Below are positions 1,299 through 51,059 of a stretch of DNA of 60,484 nucleotides, one piece after another. The position numbers were made by a program, and so were the translations under genes. Under the pieces are notes generated by a model, which did not search any database, was not told the DNA's origin, and was given only the letters and a program-made list of their open reading frames with translations. How positions within the stretch are numbered: position 1 is the stretch's first letter; each line of letters begins with the position of its first letter. The DNA is from Candidatus Giovannonibacteria bacterium (lineage in GTDB: Bacteria; Patescibacteriota; Minisyncoccia; JACPKW01; UBA11713), in contig JAHFOJ010000004.1 in the NCBI GenBank assembly GCA_023266875.1, positions 1 to 60,484 on the forward strand, in the 5' to 3' direction.

Positions 1299-4200
1299 AT
1301 GGAAACAAAAGTTACAGATTTCATATCAATTTTGCTCAAGCTAGCTTCTCCCGAGAAGATTTTATCTTGGTCGCGAGGCGAGGTGACGAAACCCGAGACC
1401 ATAAATTATCGGACACAGCGCGCTGAAAAAGACGGGCTTTTTGACGAGCGAATTTTCGGTCCGGAACACGACTACGAATGCTATTGCGGGAAATACCGCC
1501 GAATCCGCTATAAAGGAATTGTTTGCGATAAGTGCGGAGTCGAGGTAACGCGCTCTATCGTAAGACGTGAGCGCATGGGCCACATAAAATTAGCAACGCC
1601 GGTATCCCATATCTGGTTTTTGCGCGGGGTGCCTTCACGGATAGGCTTGATTTTGGACCTGTCCATCCCGGAGCTTGAGCGCGTAATTTATTTTGCGGGA
1701 TATGTGATAACGAAAGTTAACGAAAAAGCGCGCGACACCGCGCTAAAAGATTTGGAGAAGGAGTATAAGGCGAAAGAGAAAAAAGTTGAGCTCAAAAAAG
1801 ACAAAGCGGCGCTCAAGGAAGCTTTTGACAGCGCAAAAAAAGAACTTGAATCTATTCAGCCGAGAAAAGTGATAACGGAAGTTGAATATCACAAGCTATC
1901 GCTCCGCTACGGCGAGGTTTTTGAGGCCGGAATCGGCGCGGAAGCTCTCTATAAGATTTCCAAAGATGTCAATCTGCATGATCTAGCGCGAGAGCTTTCG
2001 GGCGCTTTGATTGACGCAAATCCGCAAAATAAGAAAAAAATAATCAAGCGCATAGGGGTCGTAAAAGCGATGGAACGCTCTGGAGTAAGACCGGAATGGA
2101 TGTTTTTAACTGTGATCCCAGTAAGCCCTCCGGCTTTACGCCCGATGGTCCAGCTGGAGGGCGGCAGGCATGCGACTTCCGACGTTAATGATCTTTACCG
2201 CCGCGTTATCAACCGAAACAACCGTTTGAAAAAACTTCTTGAGCTCAAGGCGCCCGAAGTTATTGTGCGAAACGAAAAAAGAATGCTTCAGGAAGCTCTT
2301 GATGCCTTGATAGACAATTCGATCAGGCGCGGGCAGTCTGCAGTAACTTCGCAAGCCCAGCGTCGCCCGCTTCGATCGCTTGCAGACATGCTTCGCGGCA
2401 AGCAAGGCAGGTTTAGGCAGAATTTGCTTGGCAAACGCGTCGATTATTCCGGCCGCTCAGTGATCGTTGTCGGTCCTGAACTTAAGCTCCATCAATGCGG
2501 ACTTCCGAAACACATGGCGCTTGAGCTATTTCGCCCTTTCGTTATTAATAAATTAATTGAGCGGGAACTTGCGCACAACATCCGCGGAGCAAACCGATTG
2601 ATTGATGAGGCAACGCCGGAGGTTTGGGCAATTTTGGAAGAAATAATCAAAGGCAAATTCGTCCTTCTCAACCGCGCGCCTACTTTACATCGTCTCGGCA
2701 TTCAGGCATTTCAGCCGGTTTTGATTGAAGGAAACGCGATTCAAATTCATCCGCTTGTATGCGAAGCGTTCAATGCTGATTTTGACGGCGACCAAATGGC
2801 TGTGCACCTACCTTTGACTGAAGAGGCGCAAAAAGAAGCTCGGGAAATTATGGCTTCATCGAAAAATCTACTAAAGCCGGGAACCGGAGATCCAATAGTT
2901 ACACCGCGCCAAGACATGATCCTCGGCTGCTATTGGCTGACAAAAATTCGCCCTGGCGCGATAGGTGAGGGTAAAATTTTTGGAAATCCAAACGAAGCCA
3001 TTTTGGCCTACGAGTTCGATCAGATAGACATAAAAGCAAAAATTAAAGTTCGCTCTACGACAAACAAAAAATATGAGGCGTTCGGCGAAAATATTTTTGA
3101 AACTACAGTAGGGCGGCTCTTGTTTAATTCTGTTTTGCCGAATGACTATCCATACATAAATGAGGACGTAAAGAAAAAAATTCTAGAGAAAATTGTTTCT
3201 CACGTCATTGTGGAATACGGAGTTGATCAAGTTGGCCCGATTGTCGACAAAATCAAGGCGTTTGGTTTTAGATACGCGACTGTGTCCGGAATCTCATGGG
3301 GCATGGATGATGTCGTCGTGCCACCTTTGAAAGACAAAATTATCAAGGCAGCGGAAGTGGAAGCGCGTAAAGTTTTTGAGCAATACAATGAAGGTCTTTT
3401 AACTGAAGATGAAAGATATGACAAAATTATTTCTATTTGGACTGATGTGAAGCGCAGAGTCGATGAACTGGTTCCGAAAACGCTCGACGAACATGGTGCT
3501 GTGCACTCTATGGTTTCTTCAAATGCCCGCGGCACTTGGACGCAGATTTCCCAGATGTCCGGGATGAAGGGGCTTGTGAAAAATCCTTCAGGCAAAACGA
3601 TTGAACTTCCGATCATTTCTTCATACAAAGAAGGATTGAACGTGCTCGAATATTTCATTTCAACTCACGGGGCGCGAAAAGGAACTGCTGATACTGCATT
3701 AAAAACGGCACATGCCGGATACTTGACGCGCCGCTTGGTGGACGTTGCTCAAGATCTTATAGTCCGTGAAGAGGACTGCAAAGACACGGTTGGGTTCCGT
3801 GTTACAAGAAAAGATGCCGAAGATTATGCGAAGGGATTTGCCCAGAGAATTTTCGGGAGGGTGCTTTCGGCGGACATGAAAGGGCCGGACGGTAAAATAA
3901 TTTTTAAGAAGGGGCATTTGGTTACGGTTGAAGACGCCGAGACGGCCGAAAAATCTGGAGCCGTCGAAGCCCAGTTGCGCTCTCCAATAAATTGCAAAAC
4001 TATTCGCGGCATATGCCAAATTTGCTATGGATACGATCTTGGATCAAATAAACTCGTAAATATGGGGGAAGCAGTAGGTATTGTCGCGGCACAGGCGATC
4101 GGAGAGCCAGGAACGCAACTAACTATGCGCACATTCCACATTGGAGGCATCGCGGGTGCTGCTGACATAACCATGGGGCTTCCGAGAATCGAAGAAATTT

Positions 4201-4958
4201 TTGAATTGCGGATGCCAAAAGTAGTTTCGGTTTTGTCTGATGTCGCGGGAGAAGTGATTGAAATTGAAAACAAAGGACAGGAGAAAATAGTCAAAATCTT
4301 GATTGATAAGACAAAAACTAAAGATAAGAGCAAAGAAGATCTTAAAGAATTTACGATTCCCTTCGGGCGCACTTTGGCGGTAAGCGTTGGAAGTAAAGTA
4401 AGCCCCGGGAGCCAGCTTTCGGAAGGCCCGGTTGATATCAAAGATTTATTCACTCTCGCCGGCGCCATTACAGCTCAAAACTATATCATCCGCGAGGCCG
4501 CGAGAATTTATAACTTGCAGGGAGCGGCGATTAACGACAAGCACATAGAAGTTATAGTGCGCCAGATGTTTTCTCGCTTGCGCGTGAACGATTCGGGCTC
4601 GACCCGACTTGCGATAGGGAATGTAATTGAAACCGCGGAGTTCGTAGAAGAAAATGAACGCACGAAAAGAGATGGTGGAGAGTTAGCAACAGCGACTATT
4701 TTGGTTATGGGCATCACGAAGACTGCTCTCACAACTTCGTCATTTTTGTCGGCTGCATCCTTCCAAGAGACCACTCGCGTTTTAATAAACGCGTCACTTG
4801 ACGCGAAAGAAGACCGGCTACACGGACTCAAAGAAAACGTGATAATTGGGCGTCTAATTCCAGCGGGCACCGGGTATCGCAAAGAATATGAAGCATTAAC
4901 AGAATTTCAGCAAAAGGAACTCGAGCGCGAGGAAGAAGAGGCGAGAGCTTACCAGTAA
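1299..4958 (+). CDS. rpoC: DNA-directed RNA polymerase subunit beta'
   Basis: 1219-aa ORF with the N-terminal Zn-finger CxC..CxxC, the catalytic [12 protein letters not shown] motif and the conserved C-terminal region. rpoB-rpoC synteny. Confidence 0.97.
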
Positions 4959-5700: not shown

Positions 5701-6261
5701 ATGAGAAAAATAGTAGCAAGATTACAGGGAGAAAATCAGGAATTGGCAGACTCTCTTAATCGGTTAGGTTCGGTGAAAGCAAAGCTTGTGAGAGGCGGGA
5801 TTATTGCAGAGTTACCGAGATTTGCAGATACCGCTTCATACAGTTTCAGAATTCCTGATCAATTGCACTATGCTCGTTTCTCAATCGAGACAACAGAGTG
5901 TGGCGGTGGGATGACGAACACTGGACACGCAAGCATTATCTGCAGCACGATCGGCGAGAAAGTTCGTCCTTTCTATATTCCCAGGGGTGGGCATTTAGCT
6001 AACGGAGACCATGCATTTTTCTCGATGCCAATGCTGGTCGAGGTCACTGGTTATCGGAATATAGAAGGTGTAGAAATATTTCATTTCTCGATTTTCAAAA
6101 AATCCCTCGGTTCCGCTGAGATCATTATGAGGGAGATCTGGAGCGGAGATCGGGAATCTCTGCCGAGAAAATATAACTACTTTACCGAGGCAGTCAACGC
6201 TGCGTATGAAAAGGCGAACTGCTATCACTGCCGCCATGTTCATTATGCTGAAGGGCGGTAA
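5701..6261 (+). CDS. Hypothetical protein (186 aa), no recognisable family
   Basis: Long ORF with the SD-like GGGGGAAG just upstream of the ATG. C-terminal CYHCRH motif. No motif I can assign. Confidence 0.6.
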   Translation: MRKIVARLQGENQELADSLNRLGSVKAKLVRGGIIAELPRFADTASYSFRIPDQLHYARFSIETTECGGGMTNTGHASIICSTIGEKVRPFYIPRGGHLANGDHAFFSMPMLVEVTGYRNIEGVEIFHFSIFKKSLGSAEIIMREIWSGDRESLPRKYNYFTEAVNAAYEKANCYHCRHVHYAEGR

Positions 6262-6727: not shown

Positions 6728-6807
6728 CCCCGTTAGAGAATGCCCCGCGGCTGGCTACGGAATTATAATTGCGGGGCGAAGTGTCACGAGTGAGTTCTCT
6801 AACGGGG
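6728..6807. repeat. Inverted-repeat element, copy 1 (CCCCGTTAGAGAA ... TTCTCTAACGGGG)
   Basis: Perfect 13-bp terminal inverted repeats (6728-6740 / 6795-6807). They enclose 54 nt containing an internal 7-bp GCCCCGC/GCGGGGC hairpin. The same core arms occur at 21387-21505 and 49636-49726. Confidence 0.7.
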
Positions 6808-12277: not shown

Positions 12278-13462
12278 ATGGAGTTTTATAAAAAAATCTT
12301 AAAGAATACAGAGGAATATAAAAAATATTTTGCGATCGGAGCGCTTTTACTCGTTTTCATCTTTTCTTTAAATCTTTTTCTCTCGACTAAATTAGGAAAT
12401 CCGATTGAATATGTTTCTTCAAAAGCCGCAAGTTCGACTTCGCAAAATGAAAAACAGGCCGCGAAAGTGAATCATTTAAAAACTCCGAAGCCGGTTCGGG
12501 GGATTTATATGACAAGCTGGGTTGCGGGCACCCCGAAATGGCGCGCGGAGCTGGTCGATTTTGTGAAAAAGACTGAGATTAATTCGATTGTGATCGACGT
12601 TAAAGATTACAGTGGGCGCGTGTCATTTGATACTGAAAACAAAAAAATAAAAGAAGTTGGATCGGAGGAAATACGAGTGCGCGATATGGCCGAGTTTATA
12701 GAAGAATTGCACGGAAACGGCATTTACGCGATCGCGCGGATTTCTGTGTTTCAAGATCCATTTTATTCGAAAGAATATCCCCAAAGCGCCGTAAAACGCA
12801 AAAACGGAGCAATTTGGAAAGACAGAAAAGGACTTTCATATGTTGATCCTTCCGCGCGTGATTTTTGGGATTATATCGCGGAAGTAGGACGCGCGAGCTC
12901 GAGAGCCGGGTTTGACGAACTTAATTTTGACTATATCCGTTTTCCTTCGGATGGCAATATGACAGACGTCGTTTTTCCTCTGTCAAATGAAAAATCAAAA
13001 GCAGATGTCCTTGATGAATTTTTCAACTATCTCGAGCGCGAGCTGAAAAGCGAGAAAGATAGCGTTCCGATTTCCGCTGATGTTTTTGGAATGACGACTA
13101 CAAATGCCGATGATCTTGGGATTGGACAGGTCTTGGAGCGTGTAGCGGAGTACTTTGATTACGTCTCTCCGATGGTTTATCCGTCGCATTATCCGCCGAC
13201 ATTTATCGGATTTAAAAATCCGGCCGACCACCCATACGAAGTTATCAATCACTCAATGTCGGCCGCGGTCTTGAGATTGTCTGCGCCTACATCCACGCCT
13301 GAAAAACTTCGTCCGTGGCTTCAGGATTTTGATTTAGGCGCGACTTACGATGCGACAATGATCCGGGAGGAGAAAAAGGCTGTTTATGATTCTGGACTTG
13401 ATTCATGGCTAATCTGGGATCCTTCGAATAAATATACGAGAGGCGCGTATGATTTGGAGTGA
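12278..13462 (+). CDS. Putative glycoside-hydrolase-like TIM-barrel protein (DUF4015/COG1306-like), membrane-anchored
   Basis: N-terminal TM helix. The RGIYMTSW.....EINSIVIDVKDYSGRVSF pattern resembles that family, recalled from memory. Confidence 0.55.
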   Translation: MEFYKKILKNTEEYKKYFAIGALLLVFIFSLNLFLSTKLGNPIEYVSSKAASSTSQNEKQAAKVNHLKTPKPVRGIYMTSWVAGTPKWRAELVDFVKKTEINSIVIDVKDYSGRVSFDTENKKIKEVGSEEIRVRDMAEFIEELHGNGIYAIARISVFQDPFYSKEYPQSAVKRKNGAIWKDRKGLSYVDPSARDFWDYIAEVGRASSRAGFDELNFDYIRFPSDGNMTDVVFPLSNEKSKADVLDEFFNYLERELKSEKDSVPISADVFGMTTTNADDLGIGQVLERVAEYFDYVSPMVYPSHYPPTFIGFKNPADHPYEVINHSMSAAVLRLSAPTSTPEKLRPWLQDFDLGATYDATMIREEKKAVYDSGLDSWLIWDPSNKYTRGAYDLE

Positions 13463-13477: not shown

Positions 13478-13527
13478 AACAGGATGTACAGGATGTATTC
13501 GTACGAATACATCCTGTACATCCTGTT
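13478..13527. terminator. Perfect 50-nt palindrome (23-bp stem, GTAC loop) between convergent genes; likely bidirectional terminator
   Basis: AACAGGATGTACAGGATGTATTC-GTAC-GAATACATCCTGTACATCCTGTT. Each arm holds a tandem CAGGATGTA repeat. T-runs flank both sides. Confidence 0.7.
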
Positions 13528-13532
13528 TTATT

Positions 13533-14453
13533 TCAAAATGCGCGGCATAGACCGATTATATGACCTTTATGTTTTATTACGAATTTATCCTCAAGCGCGA
13601 TTTTGTTTTCGAGTTCAAGCGATGCAATTCGCGGGGTCAATATTTTAAAATTTCTAATCCTTATTTTTAAGATTTTTGTTTGGTCCCGCCCGCTTTTGAG
13701 AACTAAGCTATTTCCCGCAGGATTTTTTAGCCACAAGCACTCTGCGTTTGCAAATTTCGATTGCGCCTGCAATTTGCCCAGAGAAAATGGCTTATTTTTT
13801 TCCGGGCCACTCGGCTTGAAGAAACTTAGTATTGTCTCGGCTAGAGTTTTCACACCTATTTTTTTGGCAAAGCTTAAAGGTTTTAAGAGATTTGTGCCGT
13901 TATAGGCGCTGACAGGAACAATTGGAAAATTTTTAAATCCGGCCTCTTCTGCGCTTTTCTCCACAGCTGCTTTTACGTCTATGAATTTTGGGAGAGAGTA
14001 TTTGATTTTATCGCATTTGTTTATTACAGCTATAATTTTTTCTACGCCCAAAAATGTTGCGATTTCCAAATGTTTTTTTGTCTGCGGCTTAATGCTCTCA
14101 TCTGCCGCTACAATTAAGATGCCATATTTCGCGGTTGATGCGCCTGAAAGCATATTTTTTATTAATGATTTATGCCCGGGGACGTCAATAAATTCGTAGA
14201 GAAATTTTCCAATTTTGATTTTTGCGCGGGTTGTATCGAGAGTCATCTTGCGCTCGCGCTCGTATTGAAAGCTATCCATAAGATGCGCCCACTCGAAACG
14301 TTTTCCAGATTTTTGGGCGATCGCCCGAAGTTCAGCAATTCGGCTTTCCGGAACTGATTTAGTTTCATACATTATCCGTCCCAAGAGCGTTGATTTGCCG
14401 TGGTCTTTCTCACCGAGAAGAACAATAGGGATTTCGCGCTCTCTAATCATCAC
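13533..14453 (-). CDS. cysN: Sulfate adenylyltransferase subunit 1-like GTPase (short CysN)
   Basis: EF-Tu-type GTPase motifs DHGKST, DVPGH and NKCD. ATGA overlap with the upstream cysD. At 306 aa it is shorter than canonical CysN. Confidence 0.75.
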   Translation of the reverse strand: MMIREREIPIVLLGEKDHGKSTLLGRIMYETKSVPESRIAELRAIAQKSGKRFEWAHLMDSFQYERERKMTLDTTRAKIKIGKFLYEFIDVPGHKSLIKNMLSGASTAKYGILIVAADESIKPQTKKHLEIATFLGVEKIIAVINKCDKIKYSLPKFIDVKAAVEKSAEEAGFKNFPIVPVSAYNGTNLLKPLSFAKKIGVKTLAETILSFFKPSGPEKNKPFSLGKLQAQSKFANAECLWLKNPAGNSLVLKSGRDQTKILKIRIRNFKILTPRIASLELENKIALEDKFVIKHKGHIIGLCRAF

Positions 14454-20253: not shown

Positions 20254-21396
20254 ATGATATATAACGAATCATTGACGAAATTTTTTTGTTTGATAAGCTT
20301 AATAAAAATGACTAATCAATTATTTCAGCCGAAAAGTCTTGTTTTGCAGTGGCATATAACCGAACGATGCAATTGGCGGTGCAAACATTGCTACCAAACT
20401 TCGTATACGACGCCGGAGATGGATTTGAAAATGATGGAAAATATATTGGCGCAATACGTCGGACTATTAAAAAAATGGAATATCCCGCGCCGGCATGCCA
20501 GAATTCAGATTACAGGAGGCGAACCTTTTGTGCGCCGCGACATTTTTCAATTTTTGGAGAAAGTTTATAAGTTATCCGACCATTTCCAATGGACACTTTT
20601 GTCTAACGGCTCTTTTTTGACAGAAGACAAGGTCAAACTGCTTAAATTATTCGGCATCCAATCATATCAGGTGAGCATGGAAGGATTGGAGAAGACTAAT
20701 GATGAGATCAGAGGAGAAGGCAGTTTCAAAAAAATTCTAAAAGCAATAGAACTTCTTGTTTGGGCGAAAATACCATCAAGGGTTTCCTTAACCTTAACCC
20801 GGAAAAACCTTCCGGAGATTAAAGGGTTGGCCGATCTTTTGGCTCCCTTGGGGGTGCGTGGCTTGGGAGTGAGAAGAATAGTTCCGTGGGGATCGGGAGC
20901 GGCTATGAAAGAATATGTTCTTGAGCCGCAGGAGCTGAGGGGGCTTTACCGAGAGATAGAAGAAATCAACCGAACCATGATCGCGAACGGGCACTCTTTA
21001 AAAGTAACCGGAGGGTGCGAAAACGGTATTTTTAATGATGAGATTTCTGGGGAAGGGCTGATGTCGCACGGAGTTTGCGGGGTGACCTACGGCAGAATAT
21101 TGATAGTATTGCCGAACGGAGATACATTGGCTTGTCGGAGACTGCCGATTATTCTTGGCAATCTTCACGAAAAATCGATGGAAGAAATTTATTATTCTCC
21201 GCTTTACGAAAGCTGGCGCCAAAAAGAAGATGTCCCTTCTGTCTGCCAAGCATGCCCAAGTTATCAGCATTGTTTCGGCGGAGCAAAATGCGTAACTTAC
21301 GGGATGACCGGCAAAACCGCTCCCGATGTCCAATGCTGGAAATTATTTAACAGCCTAGAAGAAGCCGCTCACAGAATTAAAAATGAATCCCGTTAG
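20254..21396 (+). CDS. Radical SAM enzyme with C-terminal SPASM domain (peptide-maturase-like)
   Basis: CNWRCKHC (CxxxCxxC) near the N-terminus. C-terminal CX14GX4C ... CQACPSYQHCFGGAKC ... C, a seven-Cys SPASM-type pattern. Alternative start ATG 20308. Confidence 0.85.
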   Translation: MIYNESLTKFFCLISLIKMTNQLFQPKSLVLQWHITERCNWRCKHCYQTSYTTPEMDLKMMENILAQYVGLLKKWNIPRRHARIQITGGEPFVRRDIFQFLEKVYKLSDHFQWTLLSNGSFLTEDKVKLLKLFGIQSYQVSMEGLEKTNDEIRGEGSFKKILKAIELLVWAKIPSRVSLTLTRKNLPEIKGLADLLAPLGVRGLGVRRIVPWGSGAAMKEYVLEPQELRGLYREIEEINRTMIANGHSLKVTGGCENGIFNDEISGEGLMSHGVCGVTYGRILIVLPNGDTLACRRLPIILGNLHEKSMEEIYYSPLYESWRQKEDVPSVCQACPSYQHCFGGAKCVTYGMTGKTAPDVQCWKLFNSLEEAAHRIKNESR

Positions 21397-21505
21397 AGGC
21401 CGCGATCGCCTGTAAACGCATTTATTATTAATAATAAAAAGATGATTAACTTTATAAATAACACATGCAAATTGCGGCTATATCGCGATCTGCCTCTAAC
21501 GGGAT
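21387..21505. repeat. Inverted-repeat element, copy 2 (ATCCCGTTAGAGGC ... GCCTCTAACGGGAT)
   Basis: Perfect 14-bp arms (21387-21400 / 21492-21505) with further imperfect GATCGC pairing and an AT-rich interior. The left arm contains the radical SAM stop codon. The right arm contains ATG 21504. Confidence 0.7.
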
Positions 21506-22718
21506 GAAAGTTTTATTTCTAACTAAATATCCGCCAATAGAAGGCGGCGTTTCCGCGCAGAATTATTGGCTGGCAAGGGCGTTGGGAGAAAAGGATGTTC
21601 AAATTTCCGTCGTGACGAACGCTTTGTTGGTGGAAGATGCTTACCGTGAAAATATAAATTGGCTGGATGGCGAAGTTTCAAGCAAATTTCAGCCCAAAAA
21701 TGTTTTTTTGTATTCTTTAAAAAATCAAACACCAACGCATATACCTTATTCTCCGGCGTATCTTTCTCGCCTGGTGAATTTGGGCCTAAAAGCGATAGCC
21801 GAACGAGGCGCGGATGCCGTATACGCTCATTATTTGGAGCCCTACGCCTCCGCGGGATTTATTTTAAAAAAAATAACCGGCCTTCCTTTGGTTATCAAGC
21901 ACGCAGGGTCTGATATTTGGAGGCTTTTGCGCAGTGAAGATTTTAAATATTTTTTAGGATGGGTTATAAAGTCCGCGGATGCACTGTTAACTTCAGAATC
22001 GCTTTCTCCCATGTTTAAGGAATTGGGGGTGCCGCAAAAAAAAATTAAATATATCCGGCGCGCCGTAAACCCAGCTCAATTTGCTTCAAAGGGCGCTCGT
22101 TTTGATTTTTCAAAAGCGGGCTTTGCGATCCCTCCCAATGTTCCGCTTTTGACTTACATCGGCAAGGCCAATTTAAACAAAGGGCTTTTTGAATTAATCG
22201 AGGCTCTATCCGGGATGAGTTCAGATTTCAGATTTTTATTTGTTTCTAACGGGCCGAAATTTGAAGAACTCAAGGCCAGAATAAATTCACATTCTAACAT
22301 TAAAGATAAGTTTGTTTATTTGGGGTTTGTGCCTCCATGGGAAATTCCCAATATCTTGCGCGCGACTGATTTTTTGTTCCAACTGGAAAACGATTTCCCC
22401 GTTCCAATTCACGGGCCGGTTCAGCCGTCTGAAGCAATCGCTTGCGGCACCCCCGTGATTTTAAGCGAGGAAATATTTTCCAAACTTAGGCCTCATTTTC
22501 CGAGCACGAGCGGCAAATTCATCGTGGTTAAGGACCCAAGAGATCCGCAAGCGCTTCGGGAAGTTTTGAAAAAAAGCTTAAATGCGATCGAGGCGGCGAA
22601 AAGTGATGCGGGCGAGATAAGAGAGGAGTTTTTGTCACGCAATCATTGGGATCAATATGTTTCAGATTATATCGAACTTTTCGATTCTGTTGCCGGACGG
22701 CGGTTCAATATTTTTTGA
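21465..22718 (+). CDS. Glycosyltransferase family 4-like
   Basis: MKVLFLTKYPPIEGGVS N-terminus typical of GT4 (probable true start ATG 21504). GT-B C-terminal domain with an E..AcG.PVI-like segment. Confidence 0.8.
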   Translation: MQIAAISRSASNGMKVLFLTKYPPIEGGVSAQNYWLARALGEKDVQISVVTNALLVEDAYRENINWLDGEVSSKFQPKNVFLYSLKNQTPTHIPYSPAYLSRLVNLGLKAIAERGADAVYAHYLEPYASAGFILKKITGLPLVIKHAGSDIWRLLRSEDFKYFLGWVIKSADALLTSESLSPMFKELGVPQKKIKYIRRAVNPAQFASKGARFDFSKAGFAIPPNVPLLTYIGKANLNKGLFELIEALSGMSSDFRFLFVSNGPKFEELKARINSHSNIKDKFVYLGFVPPWEIPNILRATDFLFQLENDFPVPIHGPVQPSEAIACGTPVILSEEIFSKLRPHFPSTSGKFIVVKDPRDPQALREVLKKSLNAIEAAKSDAGEIREEFLSRNHWDQYVSDYIELFDSVAGRRFNIF

Positions 22719-23545
22719 GCCCTTTCGATATCTGTCATTATCATTTCTTCAAAATTTTCTTTGAAATTATCATCGCGCTCTATAATAACGGTTTTAATAT
22801 CGCATTTTCCGGCAACATACTCAAGCAGCTGCCAAATTCCTTCGTTAATCCCATTTAATTCCTCCGAATGAGTATCATAAAACATATTATTATGCCGGTG
22901 GATTCTGCCTCCGGCGAGATGAATTTGCACGACATTTTCCAGCGGGAACCTTTCAAGCAAACGCAATGGATTTTCTTTGCGATTATGCGAATTAATATGT
23001 ATATTCGCCAAATCAAGTAAAAGGCCGCATCCGGTTCGTCTGCAAACCTCTTTAATAAATTCCGGTTCCTCGAAATCTCCCCCGGGTATTGTAAAAAATG
23101 AAGTGATATTTTCAAGCACCAATGGAAGTCTTAAAAAATTTTGCGCTTTATTTATTTTACTCACTACGATATCAAGAGTTTCTTTGGTAAACCAAAGAGG
23201 CGAGAGATGGCCAATGCTAACGCCGTCAACCTCAGTCAGGGCAAAATGGTCGCTATAATACGGCGCTTTGATGTAATGGCAAAAGCCCTCTATTTTTTTA
23301 AGATAATCAAAATTAATATTTTCGGCGGCGCCAATTGAAAGGTTGAGTCCGTGCGGGATTAGCGGAAGTGAATCGCCGATTTTTTTCAAAAGTTTGTTTT
23401 CGATTAAATTCGTGTTGATATAATGCTCTGAAGTAACTTCAAGCACATCGATTTCGTTTTTACGCTCCACAATTTCATCAACCAACTCCGCTCGCAAGCC
23501 AAGCCCGACCCCGAAGAAGGGAATTTTTTTAAGCTCGTAATTCAT
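22667..23545 (-). CDS. DUF692 / MbnB-TglH-like multinuclear non-heme iron oxidase (MNIO) family protein
   Basis: TIM-barrel DUF692 pattern: GVGLGLR, EVTSEHY, HGLNLSIG, YSDHFA and LVLENITSF. ATG 23545 overlaps the partner stop as ATGA. The ORF track offers a TTG at 23569. Confidence 0.8.
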   Translation of the reverse strand: MNYELKKIPFFGVGLGLRAELVDEIVERKNEIDVLEVTSEHYINTNLIENKLLKKIGDSLPLIPHGLNLSIGAAENINFDYLKKIEGFCHYIKAPYYSDHFALTEVDGVSIGHLSPLWFTKETLDIVVSKINKAQNFLRLPLVLENITSFFTIPGGDFEEPEFIKEVCRRTGCGLLLDLANIHINSHNRKENPLRLLERFPLENVVQIHLAGGRIHRHNNMFYDTHSEELNGINEGIWQLLEYVAGKCDIKTVIIERDDNFKENFEEMIMTDIERAQKILNRRPATESKSSI

Positions 23546-24021
23546 AATATTTTTAAATTCTTTTCCCAAAGTGTTTCTTTATTGATAAGCAAAGAAATGT
23601 TAAGAAAATCTGAAATGCCGGCGTTTTGGGCGGCAAGATAGCTTTTGAATAAATCGCTTAACATAAAGCCTTTGTCCGGAAGAGTTTTTAAGATGTTAAA
23701 AGCTCCGGTGCCGATTTCAACTTTTTTTATTTCGTCCTGATTTTTAAAAAATAACATTGGCCCGTTTATGTAGGCGGATGACGCCGCGACAATGTTTGGA
23801 TTTTTAGCTAATATTTTTTTTATCATCTTGTTTTTCTTATTGATCAGCGATTCCGCGAAAAGTTTCAGCGGCGTTTTAGGAAGGGCTGAAATCGCCTTTT
23901 TTTCGCGATCGTCCAAATTATATTTCTTATAAAAGACCTCTTTGTCGGATAAAAAGTCTGTGCGAGTTGATTTGTCTGTATAAATATCAACTAGCGCTTT
24001 TTGAAAATTTATTAAAGCCAT
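23542..24021 (-). CDS. Hypothetical protein, candidate MNIO partner (position and size analogous to MbnC/TglI/DUF2063-type partners)
   Basis: Translationally coupled to the DUF692 gene (ATGA). Start ATG 24021 lies 6 nt after a TATAAT. The function rests on genomic context only. Confidence 0.55.
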   Translation of the reverse strand: MALINFQKALVDIYTDKSTRTDFLSDKEVFYKKYNLDDREKKAISALPKTPLKLFAESLINKKNKMIKKILAKNPNIVAASSAYINGPMLFFKNQDEIKKVEIGTGAFNILKTLPDKGFMLSDLFKSYLAAQNAGISDFLNISLLINKETLWEKNLKIL

Positions 24022-25674: not shown

Positions 25675-25938
25675 ATGAAAACCAATGAAAGAGGCAAAAA
25701 TAACCAAATTAAATTCCGGCAGTCGCTTTTTTGGGATGTGGACCCCAAGACAATTGATCCAAAAAAGAACGCGCCATATGTGATAGAACGAATACTGGAT
25801 TTCGGTAAAGATAATGAAGTAAAGTGGTTATGGAATAAATATCAAAGAAGAACGATTCACAATGTTGTTAAAAAACGACGCGGCTTAAACAAACGAACCC
25901 GTGCTTTATGGATGCTCCTTACCGCTCCAGAGAAATAG
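25675..25938 (+). CDS. Small conserved-looking protein, putative antitoxin partner of the AbiEii-like gene
   Basis: 87 aa. Overlaps the downstream nucleotidyltransferase gene by 31 nt. The function is inferred from the pairing only. Confidence 0.5.
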   Translation: MKTNERGKNNQIKFRQSLFWDVDPKTIDPKKNAPYVIERILDFGKDNEVKWLWNKYQRRTIHNVVKKRRGLNKRTRALWMLLTAPEK

Positions 25939-26585
25939 TCTGGCGCACAGATATTTTGCCGGAAAATGCCCAGAGGGCGCTTAATTACTTGAGCGGTCAG
26001 AAATGGCTTAAGCACAGTTCTTGGTATATGGCCGGCGGTACCGCGCTCGCGCTTCAGATTGGGCACCGAACTTCCCAGGACTTGGATTTTTTTAATCCTA
26101 GGAAGTTTTCTTCTCAAATATTGATTAAGAAGTTTTCCTCCGTGGATTGGAAAACGACGATTTTTCAAGAGGGAACAATTTACGGCGGACTATTAGGTAC
26201 GAAAGTCAGCTTTATATTCTATCCTTTTTTTCTTCCAAAAGAACAGCAGCTTTTTTATGGCTCGGTTCGCGTTTTGCATGAGCGGGATATCGCGGTTATG
26301 AAAATTTTAGCAATAAGTCAGCGCGGAACCAAAAGAGATTTTGTCGATCTTTATTGGTATTGCCAAAACCGCGAACCCCTGCTTCAAATCGCGCAAAGAC
26401 TTGAGGCGCAGTATCCGAACACAAAGCATAACTATCACCATATTATTAAAAGCATGGCTTATTTCGAGGACGCGGAAGCTGATCCAATGCCTCGGATATT
26501 TTTTAAGGCGTCGTGGCCCGACATAAAAAAGTTTTTCGAGCGGGAAGTCCCGCGCGTTACCCGCGAATTTTTAGGATTGCGCTGA
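25908..26585 (+). CDS. AbiEii/AbiGii-family nucleotidyltransferase toxin (type IV TA)
   Basis: YMAGGTALALQIGHRTSQDLDFF motif characteristic of the AbiEii (DUF1814) family. Confidence 0.7.
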   Translation: MDAPYRSREIVWRTDILPENAQRALNYLSGQKWLKHSSWYMAGGTALALQIGHRTSQDLDFFNPRKFSSQILIKKFSSVDWKTTIFQEGTIYGGLLGTKVSFIFYPFFLPKEQQLFYGSVRVLHERDIAVMKILAISQRGTKRDFVDLYWYCQNREPLLQIAQRLEAQYPNTKHNYHHIIKSMAYFEDAEADPMPRIFFKASWPDIKKFFEREVPRVTREFLGLR

Positions 26586-32767: not shown

Positions 32768-32792
32768 CACTTGGTAACCCGGTTACCAAGTG
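32768..32792. repeat. REP-like palindrome, copy 1
   Basis: CACTTGGTAACC C GGTTACCAAGTG: perfect 12-bp arms. It ends 17 nt before the transposase ATG. Confidence 0.85.
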
Positions 32793-32808
32793 CTATGATA
32801 TTAGGAAT

Positions 32809-33447
32809 ATGAGAAAGATCAGATTTGCTGATGGGGAATTTTATCATATTTATAATCGCGGCGTTGATAAGCGGTCTGTATTTTTGGACCAACAAGATTT
32901 TGAGCGTTTTTTACAGAGTATGCGCGAATTTAATAACCAAAAGCCTATAGGCAGTTTGTTCGAAAACTCTTTTCGCGACAAAACCAAACTTGGTAACCGG
33001 GTTACCAAGTTGGTAGATGTTGTGTGTTATTGTCTAAATCCTAATCACTTTCATTTAATACTTAAACAACGAATAGGAAACGGCCTAAGTGAATTTATGC
33101 ATCGGCTTGGCAGCGGCTATACTCGATATTTCAATATTAAAAACAAAAGAAATGGCGCGCTTTTCCAAGGAAAATTTAAAGCCATTCATGTTGATTCCAA
33201 TGAATACCTTTTGCATTTAAGTGCTTATGTAAATTTAAATAATCGCGTTCATCGCTTACAAGGCAAGGCAGCGAGGTCAAGTTGGGAAGAATATGTACAT
33301 GGCAAGAAAGCGATGTGCAGAAAAGAAATAATTATAAAACAATTTGATAAGCCTAGTGAATATAAACATTTCGCCGAAAGCGCACTACAAGATATTTTGG
33401 AGCGCAAGAAGCTGTATAAAGAAACGGAAAATATGCTGCTCGAATAG
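32809..33447 (+). CDS. REP-associated tyrosine transposase (IS200/IS605 TnpA-like, Y1 HUH)
   Basis: YHIYNRGV N-terminus, HUH motif in NPNHFHLIL and the catalytic-Tyr region SAYVNLN, all typical of RAYT / IS200-like TnpA. Confidence 0.8.
   Translation: MRKIRFADGEFYHIYNRGVDKRSVFLDQQDFERFLQSMREFNNQKPIGSLFENSFRDKTKLGNRVTKLVDVVCYCLNPNHFHLILKQRIGNGLSEFMHRLGSGYTRYFNIKNKRNGALFQGKFKAIHVDSNEYLLHLSAYVNLNNRVHRLQGKAARSSWEEYVHGKKAMCRKEIIIKQFDKPSEYKHFAESALQDILERKKLYKETENMLLE
32987..33011. repeat. REP-like palindrome, copy 2, inside the transposase CDS
   Basis: AACTTGGTAACC G GGTTACCAAGTT: perfect 12-bp arms. It encodes KLGNRVTKL. Confidence 0.85.
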
Positions 33448-33474
33448 CCACTTGGTAACCCGGTTATCAAGTGG
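33448..33474. repeat. REP-like palindrome, copy 3
   Basis: CCACTTGGTAACC C GGTTATCAAGTGG: 13-bp arms with one mismatch. It starts 1 nt after the transposase stop. Confidence 0.8.
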
Positions 33475-49597: not shown

Positions 49598-49632
49598 GCC
49601 ACCTTAGCTCAGTAGCAGAGCAACGGTTTTGT
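49598..49632 (+). pseudogene. Orphan tRNA 5' half (acceptor 5' strand, D-arm, anticodon stem 5' strand and UUUGU)
   Basis: GCCACCT-TA-GCTCAGTAGCAGAGC-A-ACGGT-TTTGT matches the downstream tRNA-Thr from the D-stem to the anticodon. The acceptor strand differs, and no T-arm or 3' half follows. Confidence 0.6.
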
Positions 49633-49635
49633 TCG

Positions 49636-49726
49636 CCCCGTTAGAGCCGGAGTAGCTCAGCGGCAGAGCAACGGTTTTGTAAACCGTAGGTCGCGAGTTC
49701 GAATCTCGCCTCCGGCTCTAACGGGG
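49636..49726. repeat. Inverted-repeat pair, copy 3 (CCCCGTTAGA ... TCTAACGGGG) bracketing tRNA-Thr
   Basis: The arms abut the tRNA, so the acceptor stem extends into a perfect 17-bp helix (49636-49652 / 49710-49726). Confidence 0.8.
49646..49717 (+). tRNA. tRNA-Thr (anticodon TGT)
   Basis: Manual cloverleaf: GCCGGAG/CTCCGGC acceptor, GCTC/GAGC D-stem, ACGGT/ACCGT anticodon stem, loop TTTGTAA, variable AGGTC, GCGAG-TTCGAAT-CTCGC T-arm and discriminator T. No CCA is encoded. Confidence 0.9.
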
Positions 49727-49745
49727 TAAATAGACCATCGCAGAG

Positions 49746-51059
49746 GTGGCTCAAAAATATATGCCAAAAGAAAGGGTACTGAAAATAAAAAAAGTGGATC
49801 AAGTAACTGCTGGCCAGAAGAGGAAGGTTGTTATAGCTGGCGGGGGTTTTGCCGGTGTTGCATGCGCGCTTGATCTTTTAAAAAAACATCTTGATATTCA
49901 AGTTACTCTTCTTGATAAAAATAATTTTCATTCGTATAGTCCGGATTTTTATGAAGTTGCCGTGGGAATGGCGCACAAAAATCCGTCGCTCGAATTAAAA
50001 GATTTCTTAGAGTTAAAGACAACTGTTGCAATACCCTTTGAGGATATATTCAGGAGTTATAAAAACTTCGAATTTATCGCGAGCGAGGTAAAAAATATTA
50101 ATTTCAAAAAGCGTCTTGTGGAGACTGACGGTCCGGAGATTGGATACGATTACTTAATTTTAGCTATGGGGTCAGAAACTAATTTCTTCGGTATCGCGCA
50201 CATGGCCGAGCATGCGTTTGAACTGAAGCGATTAGGAGACGCGCTTAATATCCGCGCGGGCTTAAATGAATTATTCGAATCTCGCGCGAAACATGACGTG
50301 ATTTCCATAGTTATCGGCGGTGGCGGATTTACGGGGACGGAGCTCGCCGGGGAATTGGCTATAAATTTAAAACGTTTGAGCGATTTTTATGGGCACCCAT
50401 TGGAAAATGTCTCGCTTTCCATTGTTGAGGCGAGCGGCCGACTTTTGCCCTCTCTGGATAACTGGATTTCAACAAAAGCAAAGAGGCGGCTTGAGAAATT
50501 GGGAGTCGGCGTGGTTTTATGCGGGTACATTACGGAAGTAAGAAAAAACGAAATAATTTTAGAAAATCAAAAGTCTATTCCTTTTCATTTGCTTGTTTGG
50601 ACAGCTGGCGTCAAAGCGGCTTCTTGTTTGGAAAATTTTGATGGGATTGAGCTTGAAAAAAATAAGTGCGTAGCCGTGAATGAAAATTTAGAATTGTCCG
50701 GCAGAGAAAACGTTTTTGCTATAGGCGATTTGGCTCACATTGCATATGCTGAGAACAAAAAGCCAGAGCGAATGACAGCTTGGGCGGCGATTGAAGCGGG
50801 ACATTTTGTCGCAAAGCGAATCAGTTGTTTAATTTCAGGTAAAAATAAAACTGATTTTCGCCCGAAGTCCCGTGGTTTTGTGATCCCATTAGGCGGGAAA
50901 TATGCACTCGCCGATTTTGGATGGTTAAAAATTTCAGGATGGCTGGCTTGGCTTGCCAAACGGCTAATTACCTTAAAATACTTTATGTCAATTCTGCCGG
51001 CAGGCAAAGCGTTTAGGCTGTGGTTGCGGGGGATAAAAATTTTCACTAAAAACGATTAG
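49746..51059 (+). CDS. ndh: Type II NADH dehydrogenase-like FAD-dependent oxidoreductase
   Basis: VVIAGGGFAGV and VIGGGGFTGTELAGE dinucleotide motifs, plus GD near the C-terminus. GTG 49746 from the ORF track; alternative ATG at 49761. Confidence 0.85.
   Translation: MAQKYMPKERVLKIKKVDQVTAGQKRKVVIAGGGFAGVACALDLLKKHLDIQVTLLDKNNFHSYSPDFYEVAVGMAHKNPSLELKDFLELKTTVAIPFEDIFRSYKNFEFIASEVKNINFKKRLVETDGPEIGYDYLILAMGSETNFFGIAHMAEHAFELKRLGDALNIRAGLNELFESRAKHDVISIVIGGGGFTGTELAGELAINLKRLSDFYGHPLENVSLSIVEASGRLLPSLDNWISTKAKRRLEKLGVGVVLCGYITEVRKNEIILENQKSIPFHLLVWTAGVKAASCLENFDGIELEKNKCVAVNENLELSGRENVFAIGDLAHIAYAENKKPERMTAWAAIEAGHFVAKRISCLISGKNKTDFRPKSRGFVIPLGGKYALADFGWLKISGWLAWLAKRLITLKYFMSILPAGKAFRLWLRGIKIFTKND

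Follow-up and report, generated by a model that had tools for sequence, protein, structure and literature searches.

The 60,484-nt contig JAHFOJ010000004.1 of Candidatus Giovannonibacteria, analysed here over its whole length and called the window below, contains three copies of a short inverted repeat in which the 10-mer CCCGTTAGAG faces CTCTAACGGG. These arms are probably the terminal inverted repeats of a family of very small mobile DNA elements, common in ultra-small bacteria of groundwater, whose full form encodes a GIY-YIG nuclease, with copies 1 and 2 of the window as non-autonomous members and copy 3 as a member that has replaced a tRNA gene. The same arms recur as ends across many genomes, are often flanked by 4-bp duplications, and enclose the nuclease gene in the longest form, while the tRNA cassette lies nested within a resident tRNA gene and is present or absent at the same locus among relatives. 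An earlier sequence-only reading of the window had noted the three arm pairs and proposed that they were a processing helix releasing small RNAs, recombination sites, or decayed miniature inverted-repeat transposable elements (MITEs).

Inverted repeats of the window

The 10-mer CCCGTTAGAG has six exact matches over both strands of the window, arranged as three facing CCCGTTAGAG/CTCTAACGGG pairs (6729-6738/6797-6806, 21389-21398/21494-21503 and 49637-49646/49716-49725), and the three loci are therefore all present as first described. With one mismatch allowed there are 7 arm matches against 1.67 expected, a number reached by none of 100 shuffles, and the shuffle expectation for the gapped arm-pair pattern is 0.00. 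Three chance occurrences of an inverted repeat with arms of just 10-11 nt are refuted by this expectation and by the hundreds of copies found elsewhere, which have common flanks and fall into subfamilies. The perfect arms measure 13 bp in copy 1 (6728-6740/6795-6807) and 14 bp in copy 2 (21387-21400/21492-21505), as had been read, but those of copy 3 measure 17 bp (49636-49652/49710-49726) and not 10, because the helix continues into the acceptor stem of the enclosed tRNA. The interiors of the three copies have no pairwise similarity, and all three copies lie at gene boundaries as judged from the neighbouring open reading frames (ORFs); the first reading was correct on both points. Exact 10-nt arms with a complementary terminal Y/R pair are featured in all three copies and in every related locus examined (Table 1).

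Table 1. Coordinates of the three arm-bounded copies, their duplications and the tRNA genes of copy 3 in the window
Feature	Position	Strand	Description
Copy 1, 80-bp non-coding element	6728-6807	.	11-nt terminal inverted repeats C-CCCGTTAGAG (6728-6738) and CTCTAACGGG-G (6797-6807)
Copy 2, 117-bp MITE-like element	21388-21504	+	Ends T-CCCGTTAGAG (21388-21398) and CTCTAACGGG-A (21494-21504)
Copy 2 target-site duplication TGAA, left	21384-21387	.	Direct sequence reading
Copy 2 target-site duplication TGAA, right	21505-21508	.	With A21504 rebuilds the glycosyltransferase ATG (21504-21506)
Copy 3, tRNA cassette	49636-49726	+	C-CCCGTTAGA, tRNA-Thr(TGT), CTAACGGG-G; 17-bp helix
Inner tRNA-Thr(TGT), cassette cargo, functional gene	49646-49717	+	ARAGORN; Rfam RF00005, 74.3 bits
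5' remnant of displaced tRNA-Thr(TGT), GCCACCTTAGCTCAGTAGCAGAGCAACGGTTTTG	49598-49631	+	Acceptor stem to anticodon position 35
3' remnant of displaced tRNA, TAAATAGACCATCGCAGAGGTGGCT	49727-49751	+	AGGTGGC (49744-49750) pairs with GCCACCT of the 5' remnant

Copy 1 is located 66 nt upstream of ftsK, and its interior is composed of AATGC, a GC hairpin and a terminal ...GAGTT. Copy 2 has extended subterminal repeats, GCCGCGATCGC...GCGATCTGC, around an AT-rich middle. Its left arm holds the TAG stop codon of a radical-SAM ORF and its right arm abuts the ATG of a glycosyltransferase gene, and without the insertion the radical-SAM ORF would have run past the start of the glycosyltransferase gene. The mechanical ORF list places the glycosyltransferase ATG at 21465, inside copy 2, whereas the family pattern points to 21504; automatic annotation likely adds 13 spurious residues to this protein. 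In the source metagenome the ends of copy 2 have a depth of 112-326 against approximately 8 for the surrounding genome, and similarity to copy 2 begins and ends exactly at ATGAAT...ATGAA. No empty-site alleles were seen in the source metagenome as represented by Logan contigs, from which rare variants are lost. The neighbours of copy 3 are a 141-aa ORF on one side and an NDH-2-like gene on the other. The folding z-scores of the window copies are strong (-3.4 to -7.8), and an Rfam search of the copies gave tRNA as the sole match at the gathering threshold, the other matches in an E-value search being sub-threshold and hairpin-like. The metatranscriptome from the source sample has a coverage of 0 at all three loci, which speaks neither way.

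Insertion footprint

A perfect 4-bp direct repeat flanks 83 of 138 arm pairs, compared to a mean of 9.8 and a maximum of 20 for shuffled partners, and TGAA is the commonest duplicated 4-mer, followed by TTTA, TTCA and TAAA. The flank logo of the 138 pairs reads xTNNAY before the left arm and RTNNAx after the right arm. Positions -1 and +1 are complementary in 95% of the pairs, and the inner four flank bases are 70-82% identical per position, compared to 20-40% in shifted registers. From the logo and the -1/+1 complementarity it follows that the ends are 11 nt long, Y-CCCGTTAGAG, and that insertion duplicates 4 bp. Within the window this duplication is visible at copy 2 only, and not for copy 1 (2/4) or copy 3. 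Of the 138 elements, 55 directly adjoin the start codon of an ORF that is 80 codons long or longer; among these the '...CCTRY' end is gene-proximal in 35 and the opposite end in 6. The possibility that the arm is built to provide a stop codon for the upstream gene was rejected, as such codons are not enriched (13 versus 21 and 11 in control frames).

The recombination sites of the first reading would be attC-, dif- or lox-like sequences used by a tyrosine or serine recombinase for cassette exchange. The GTTAGAG/CTCTAAC within the arms is close to the integron core sites GTTRRRY/RYYYAAC, the variable interiors are within the attC size range, and one locus (L136) has a right arm-TAAA-left arm palindrome. 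However, the arms have the order GTT...AAC on either strand while attC reads AAC...GTT, and the flanking direct repeats differ from copy to copy, as target duplications do and a fixed crossover core does not. No recombinase or integrase-like family recurs among the arm-adjacent genes, and the elements are scattered with no arrays. Recombination sites are therefore a very improbable explanation, and the idea holds only loosely, in that the arms would be ends recognised by a mobility enzyme, with no attC or dif architecture. The palindrome of L136 is located downstream of a nested tRNA (6104-6129) and is composed of TTTCTAACGGGG-TAAA-CCCCGTTAGAAA, a right-arm-like and a left-arm-like sequence head to head, which would match the layout expected for two abutting elements or a circle-junction-like site.

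The full-length element and its nuclease

The longest form was identified at locus L003, a 386-bp arm-bounded unit with a minus-strand ORF that begins 7 nt past one arm and extends into the other. After removal of a nested short element this ORF encodes an 86-aa GIY-YIG protein. A protein search with the L003 nuclease gave at least 2979 homologues at E < 1e-5, the best 120 of which are 69-92% identical, mostly 86 aa long and named only 'GIY-YIG nuclease family protein'. The motif RF[LIVM][STI]LTG is present in 115 of these 120; 87 end there and the others continue for 1-24 residues into the flank. Five independent loci were found via the protein and not via the arms (L177, L181, L188, L189 and L193), one located between pgk and tpiA, one by an ORF6N gene and three elsewhere. 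In each of the five, the ATG is preceded at a distance of 10-17 nt by an exact CCCGTTAGAG and the final codons are an exact CTCTAACGGG, with the right arm read as tCT CTA ACG GGg to give SLTG, the C-terminal residues of the nuclease. The full element is 274-281 bp long and is composed of the left arm, 7-17 nt, and one 86-residue GIY-YIG ORF that ends in the right arm, with the stop codon mostly within the first flanking bases. Synonymous variation is found just upstream of the right arm and none inside it, which indicates that the arm is constrained as DNA as well as protein.

The nuclease matches the Pfam GIY-YIG domain (PF01541) with E-values of 3e-15 to 9e-19 (56.6-68.1 bits, cut-off 22.6), and the catalytic motif Y.Y...Y.G..L..R...H...YYE, which holds the Tyr, Tyr, Arg, His and Glu residues, is conserved in 107 of the 120 homologues. 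The AlphaFold (AF2) model has a predicted local distance difference test (pLDDT) score of 92.7, and its nearest relatives are the UPF0213 protein BH0048, the Slx1 nuclease domain (TM 0.61-0.65) and the I-TevI catalytic domain. Short copies of approximately 115-120 bp with a hairpin by the right arm are collinear with the full element at three places, namely at the left end, over the final 18-22 nt, and between them at GATTTACGGAAAC, which encodes DLRK and has an offset of approximately 90 in both. By this collinearity these short copies appear to be internal-deletion derivatives of the full element.

The same mobile family could instead be moved by another, conventional transposase, for which an IS1380/piggyBac-like DDE enzyme is the candidate, and the GIY-YIG gene would then be a passenger or a homing-type exploiter. 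IS1380 and piggyBac elements have CC ends and a 4-5 bp duplication, and the 4-bp TNNA duplication and CCC termini of the present family resemble them. Clean duplications are mostly missing at the autonomous GIY-YIG copies, and we know of no GIY-YIG enzyme that acts as a transposase. Nevertheless, no transposase family recurs by the arms in about 190 loci (about 1.5 Mb) whose neighbours were not each Pfam-scanned, no long ORF lies within an arm pair in these loci, and the neighbours that are enriched are of the housekeeping type. The nuclease ORF also exactly fills the element and overlaps its right arm, which is unlike cargo, and the short forms derive from the nuclease element itself by internal deletion. 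A conventional transposase is consequently considered an unlikely mover of the family.

At L177 (1481-1900) two tandem arm-bounded GIY-YIG units lie between pgk and tpiA, separated by GGTAAAC, and the second looks degenerate. This insertion recurs in many samples, with P0137 listed on 24 contigs. Other small GIY-YIG genes of 84-87 aa have different C-termini and inverted repeats of their own, and are found in L073 (2722-3030, bounded by ACCCCCACACCTAATTTG), in L101 (approximately 4060-4350 on the minus strand, bounded by CTCTTCACCCC/GGGGTGAAGAG) and as the second gene of L190/L191 (849-1103). Repeat-bounded mini GIY-YIG genes may thus form a superfamily with many end types.

Distribution and subfamilies

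A collection with one genome per species (596 Gb) was scanned for the pattern CCCGTTAGAG-N(41-101)-CTCTAACGGG with exact arms, and the arm pair was present in at least 120 genome contigs. Among the 80 matches listed, 49 belong to Patescibacteria (approximately 20 candidate classes), 10 to Omnitrophota, 6 to Planctomycetota and 6 to other phyla, and 9 are unclassified, the taxon labels being those assigned by the depositors of the metagenome-assembled genomes. By a rough estimate, a pattern with 20 fixed bases and 61 possible gap lengths should occur by chance about 30 times in 596 Gb, as scattered single matches. A check for phage carriage gave 0 matches to the arm pair among 2.9 M viral contigs. 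The sequence-only reading had made its case dependent on further copies in genomes and relatives, and these are abundant across phyla; together with the shuffle expectation they bear out its view that the arms are a non-chance family in which the arms, rather than the interiors, matter.

The subfamily layout of copy 1, AATGC(C/T)CCGCGG...GAGTT, is also found in Kaiserbacteria (L066) and Uhrbacteria (L060, L006). The copy 2 subfamily, RCCGCGRTCGC...GCGAYCTGY with an AT-rich middle, can be aligned in Azam-, Zambryskii-, Kaiser-, Nomura- and Wolfebacteria. Covariation, which had been suggested as a check on aligned copies, is present in this alignment: pairing in the 20-bp terminal helix reaches 97.5%, 4 of its pairs are compensated, and none of 500 shuffles attains that (cells, score). 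Relatives of each window copy in other genomes share subterminal or interior sequence, and the three window copies, judged by these alignments, appear to be one member each of three subfamilies, which explains why their interiors differ. The argument that differing interiors are not those of a MITE does not stand for this reason. Mobile DNA is the best supported of the three initial options, but the window copies are not decayed MITEs. Nested insertions occur as well, with a minimal element (arms and 7 nt) inside another in L006 and another nest in L003.

Two other repeat types were considered and rejected. Cyanobacterial HIP1/SDR repeats were suggested by GCGATCGC in copy 2, but the genes of the window are Patescibacterial by their best EF-Ts matches. 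CRISPR-like or tandem arrays were the other candidate; neighbouring units can have identical interiors, and the interior lengths are 43-103 nt.

The tRNA cassette

The arms of copy 3 do enclose a complete tRNA-Thr, which was confirmed by ARAGORN and Rfam. The last G of the left arm doubles as G1 of this tRNA, and the right arm opens with C72 and the discriminator T, which makes the arm helix continuous with the acceptor stem. The cassette is nested in the remains of an older tRNA gene (Table 1). The 5' remnant is separated from the cassette by a 4-nt junction, TTCG (49632-49635), and matches both the un-invaded tRNA of another member of the Giovannonibacteria (L168) and the outer half in L167, while the 3' remnant is without the 3' strand of the anticodon stem and the greater part of the T arm. 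The order of the locus, rpsB-tsf-x-tRNA-Thr-NDH2, is syntenic.

A metagenome scan for the arms around a T-loop (tRNA-like interior) gave 45 contigs/loci. The cargo is tRNA-Thr (CGT, TGT or GGT) in 38 of the 45, always in the register of copy 3, which is also found in L028, and the others include three tRNA-Pro and two tRNA-Val, which have short linkers. None of approximately 80 other tRNAs in the same loci has arms around it, and some tRNA-Thr genes are also armless. Nearly all cassettes interrupt an older tRNA with the matching anticodon, in the D-loop or after anticodon position 35. Their chromosomal places are conserved: tRNA-Thr(CGT) adjoins prfB-ftsE-ftsX, and tRNA-Thr(TGT) follows rpsB-tsf, as in the window. 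In-silico excision gives an intact outer tRNA in 14 of 47 loci but none for the window. In L160 a perfect outer tRNA-Thr is obtained only when the cassette and exactly 6 nt (one GTAAAC) are removed, which identifies a fresh insertion with duplication. Cassettes with 97-99% identity are found within different outer tRNAs and in hosts that share only 45-49% identity in their release factors, which indicates horizontal spread.

The rpsB-tsf loci were also sampled via EF-Ts homologues, regardless of arms. Among the Giovannonibacteria, L167 has a nested tRNA-Thr(TGT) with an almost intact outer gene, and L168 (EF-Ts 69% identical to that of L167) has a plain gene whose last 30 nt are identical to the outer 3' half of L167. 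The tRNA-Thr(TGT) of L170 is nested with decaying arms, and L169 (EF-Ts 86% identical to that of L170) retains the inner tRNA and a decayed left arm only. In L171 and L172 the tRNA-Thr(TGT) is plain. Relatives therefore differ in whether they have the cassette, and the arms decay after its fixation.

These loci bear directly on the first option of the sequence-only reading, an element acting at the RNA level. The arms would then be a processing helix, for example a site for a double-strand-specific RNase, copies 1 and 2 would encode small RNAs, and the cassette with its tRNA would be either a precursor structure or an insert resembling an intron. Such a role is consistent with the continuity of the arm helix with the acceptor stem, the strong folding z-scores, the compensatory changes in the terminal helix, and cassette flanks that lengthen the helix with G.U-compatible changes, as well as with the 35:6 orientation of short elements relative to the downstream gene and with a few outer tRNAs that differ by compensated stem changes (L143 versus L149). 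However, the orthologous tRNA-Thr genes are armless in L168, L171 and L172 and carry decaying arms in L169 and L170, other tRNA-Thr genes on the same contigs have no arms, and the outer tRNA can be restored in just those 14 of 47 loci. The same arms also bound a protein-coding gene that reads its right arm as codons, the elements are flanked by direct repeats of target DNA, and Rfam has no match for copies 1 and 2. As a primary role the release of small RNAs is unsupported by these results, and an RNA-level element is an improbable explanation of the family.

Other hairpins are inserted in the tRNA genes of these bacteria. A second family, TCCCGAT...ATCGAGGATCC.CGAT...ATCGGGA/ATCGAGA, is found in L170 (4433-4489) and in the cassette flanks of L161 and L122, and in several lineages interrupts outer tRNA-Thr genes in the region of the D-stem. 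Further hairpins with CCCCGT...ACGGGG stems lie in T or anticodon loops (L165, L155, L140). From these sequences tRNA genes appear to be hotspots for small palindromic insertions in these bacteria.

Proposed mechanism

As a mobile DNA family, the elements would be mobilised by the nuclease of the full form. This enzyme, with its Slx1/UPF0213-like fold, would recognise the paired ends, perhaps cutting at the base of a hairpin or cruciform, and the breaks made by the nuclease would be completed by host repair. A hairpin or cruciform substrate fits because of the Slx1-like fold and the compensated terminal helix. The 60-120 bp non-coding forms keep the arms and would be moved in trans. Insertion would take place at T-N-N-A in the context R-TNNA-Y, often at ATGAA, and would rebuild the start codon of the next gene. 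Copy 3 would have landed in the anticodon loop of a resident tRNA-Thr(UGU) gene, a disruption tolerated because the cassette provides the same tRNA, and the old halves would now be decaying. A cassette would persist in a single-copy essential tRNA gene only if it carries the same tRNA, which would account for the match between inner and outer anticodons. The anticodon loop of tRNA-Thr, NGT-AAAC, contains the favoured target GTAAAC.

Several observations weigh against this explanation. Most tRNA cassettes, including copy 3, have no duplication, and the 4-mers flanking copy 1 (TTGC and TTCA) match at only 2 of 4 positions, although the duplication of copy 1 reads as a decayed one. The cassette flanks form an imperfect extension of the helix (CTTGY...RTRAA) with G.U-compatible changes, and the same junction is found in different lineages; an RNA-level role, or homologous replacement spreading an already-nested allele, would also fit such flanks and may contribute. 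The compensatory changes show that the ends pair, without telling DNA from RNA. The scans required exact arms, so that the invariance of the arms among the matches is partly a matter of ascertainment. No GIY-YIG protein is encoded in the 60-kb window by tblastn, and the related nuclease genes in the same metagenome are not assigned to the source organism. Among the autonomous copies a clean duplication is found only at L189, the others having a stop-codon-like right flank. The nuclease could also be cargo, as its link to mobility is one that we infer from the arrangement of the element.

The most specific form of the proposal is a new class of transposable element, in which an 86-residue Slx1/UPF0213-like GIY-YIG nuclease is the sole protein and acts on a hairpin or cruciform of its own 11-nt ends. 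At approximately 280 bp this would be the smallest autonomous transposon, and it would be the source of the cross-phylum MITEs that land on start codons and of the cassettes that replace single-copy tRNA-Thr, -Val and -Pro genes of bacteria with reduced genomes by a foreign copy of the same tRNA. This form is put forward tentatively, with a likelihood a little short of even. A full-text literature search with the arm sequence and topic combinations found no description of this element family. To our knowledge, the parent enzyme class (GIY-YIG), the size, the identity of the ends across phyla and the tRNA cargo are features of no known family.

If the nuclease does mobilise the elements, GIY-YIG would be a new enzymatic class for bacterial transposons and would set a new lower size limit for an autonomous element. 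It would also explain the thousands of near-identical 86-aa GIY-YIG proteins that have no assigned role in the genomes of Omnitrophota and candidate phyla. For annotation, the short forms rebuild start codons, so gene callers misplace starts, and the left arm of copy 2 additionally provides the upstream stop codon. The tRNA cassettes represent a route for the horizontal replacement of essential single-copy tRNA genes in minimal genomes, and the tRNA-in-tRNA relics are expected to be misread by tRNA finders and in phylogenies. The invariant 11-nt ends could serve as a metagenomic marker of the mobile family.

Other features of the window

The neighbouring genes of the window are housekeeping genes of the Patescibacteria type and include rpoB/C, ftsK, recA, rpsB, a 149-aa EF-Ts, and genes for a radical-SAM/SPASM protein, a GT4 glycosyltransferase and an NDH-2-like protein. 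The best EF-Ts matches are from Giovannoni-, Terry- and Niyogibacteria, at an identity of no more than 68%. The region around copy 2 (20254-23569) encodes the radical-SAM/SPASM protein (20254-21396), the GT4 glycosyltransferase (21504-22718) and a convergent enzyme of the MbnB/TglH/ChrH family (22667-23569, minus strand; PF05114, E 9e-74), and is a possible cluster of the ribosomally synthesised and post-translationally modified peptide (RiPP) type. The ORF at 25908-26585 has an AbiEii nucleotidyltransferase toxin domain of type IV toxin-antitoxin systems (PF08843, E 3e-17). A perfect, loopless 50-nt palindrome (25+25; 13478-13527) lies between the convergent genes 12278-13462 (+) and 13533-14453 (-) and is probably a bidirectional terminator, though unusually long and perfect for one.

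Comparison with known systems

The elements share several features with the MITEs of bacterial insertion sequences, such as Correia/NEMIS, RPE and ERIC, which are likewise short and non-coding, with terminal inverted repeats, a short target duplication, a position at gene boundaries, long hairpins and an origin by internal deletion from a coding parent. Unlike these, the parent here is approximately 280 bp long and encodes a GIY-YIG protein in place of a DDE, HUH, tyrosine or serine transposase. The ends, of 10-11 nt, also stay identical across several phyla and enclose many unrelated interior subfamilies, and some copies carry a complete tRNA.

REPINs are similarly hairpin-forming, non-autonomous elements in which a variable spacer separates two conserved inverted arms, and they are thought to be mobilised in trans by a single-copy enzyme (PMC3116915). 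In the REPIN/RAYT system, whose enzyme is IS200-like (Y1), each REP arm is palindromic and there is no target duplication (PMC3116915), whereas the CCCGTTAGAG arms lack self-complementarity and often come with 4-bp duplications. The window also encodes a RAYT-like protein of 212 aa (32809-33447, +), which matches PF01797 at 32.6 bits, above the cut-off, and the NCBIfam REP-associated tyrosine transposase model at 31 bits against a cut-off of 80. A perfect palindrome, CTTGGTAACCNGGTTACCAAG, is found upstream of this ORF (32770-32790), after its stop codon (33451-33471) and as a third, in-frame copy (32989-33009). This unit (32768-33473) has no CCCGTTAGAG arms nearby and looks to be a RAYT/REP pair distinct from the CCCGTTAGAG family.

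GIY-YIG homing endonuclease genes, such as I-TevI and the seg genes of T4, are also selfish nuclease genes that invade conserved genes while the host function is kept; in the present family the invaded genes are tRNA genes, entered at fixed positions. The present nuclease has no separate DNA-binding domain and is 86 aa long, compared to 245 aa for I-TevI. Its gene has inverted-repeat ends and target duplications at many unrelated sites, and no intron or intein is involved, so that function is restored by a spare gene and not by splicing. The closest relatives in sequence and fold are UPF0213/COG2827 proteins (BH0048, PDB 1ZG2) and the Slx1 domain. Slx1 cuts branched and stem-loop DNA, an activity that would suit the element because its ends pair. 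The C-terminal ...NRLKRFLSLTG tail, which is encoded by the repeat, sets the present group apart from UPF0213 and Slx1, and we know of no report of UPF0213 or Slx1 proteins as the product of a mobile element bounded by repeats.

Archaeal tRNA introns and split tRNAs resemble the cassettes in their D-loop and anticodon-loop insertions and in the helix formed by the ends of the insert. The cassettes differ from these introns in that they lack a bulge-helix-bulge and reside in bacterial hosts, and splicing of the insert would not rescue the outer tRNA, which at most loci is broken. Integrative elements with tRNA genes as their target likewise enter at the anticodon or D/T-loop region, and tRNA sequence supplied by the element keeps the gene functional. 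Those elements are kilobases long, encode an integrase and supply only the 3' part of the tRNA, whereas the cassette described here is approximately 90 bp long and brings a whole tRNA, with the old gene abandoned.

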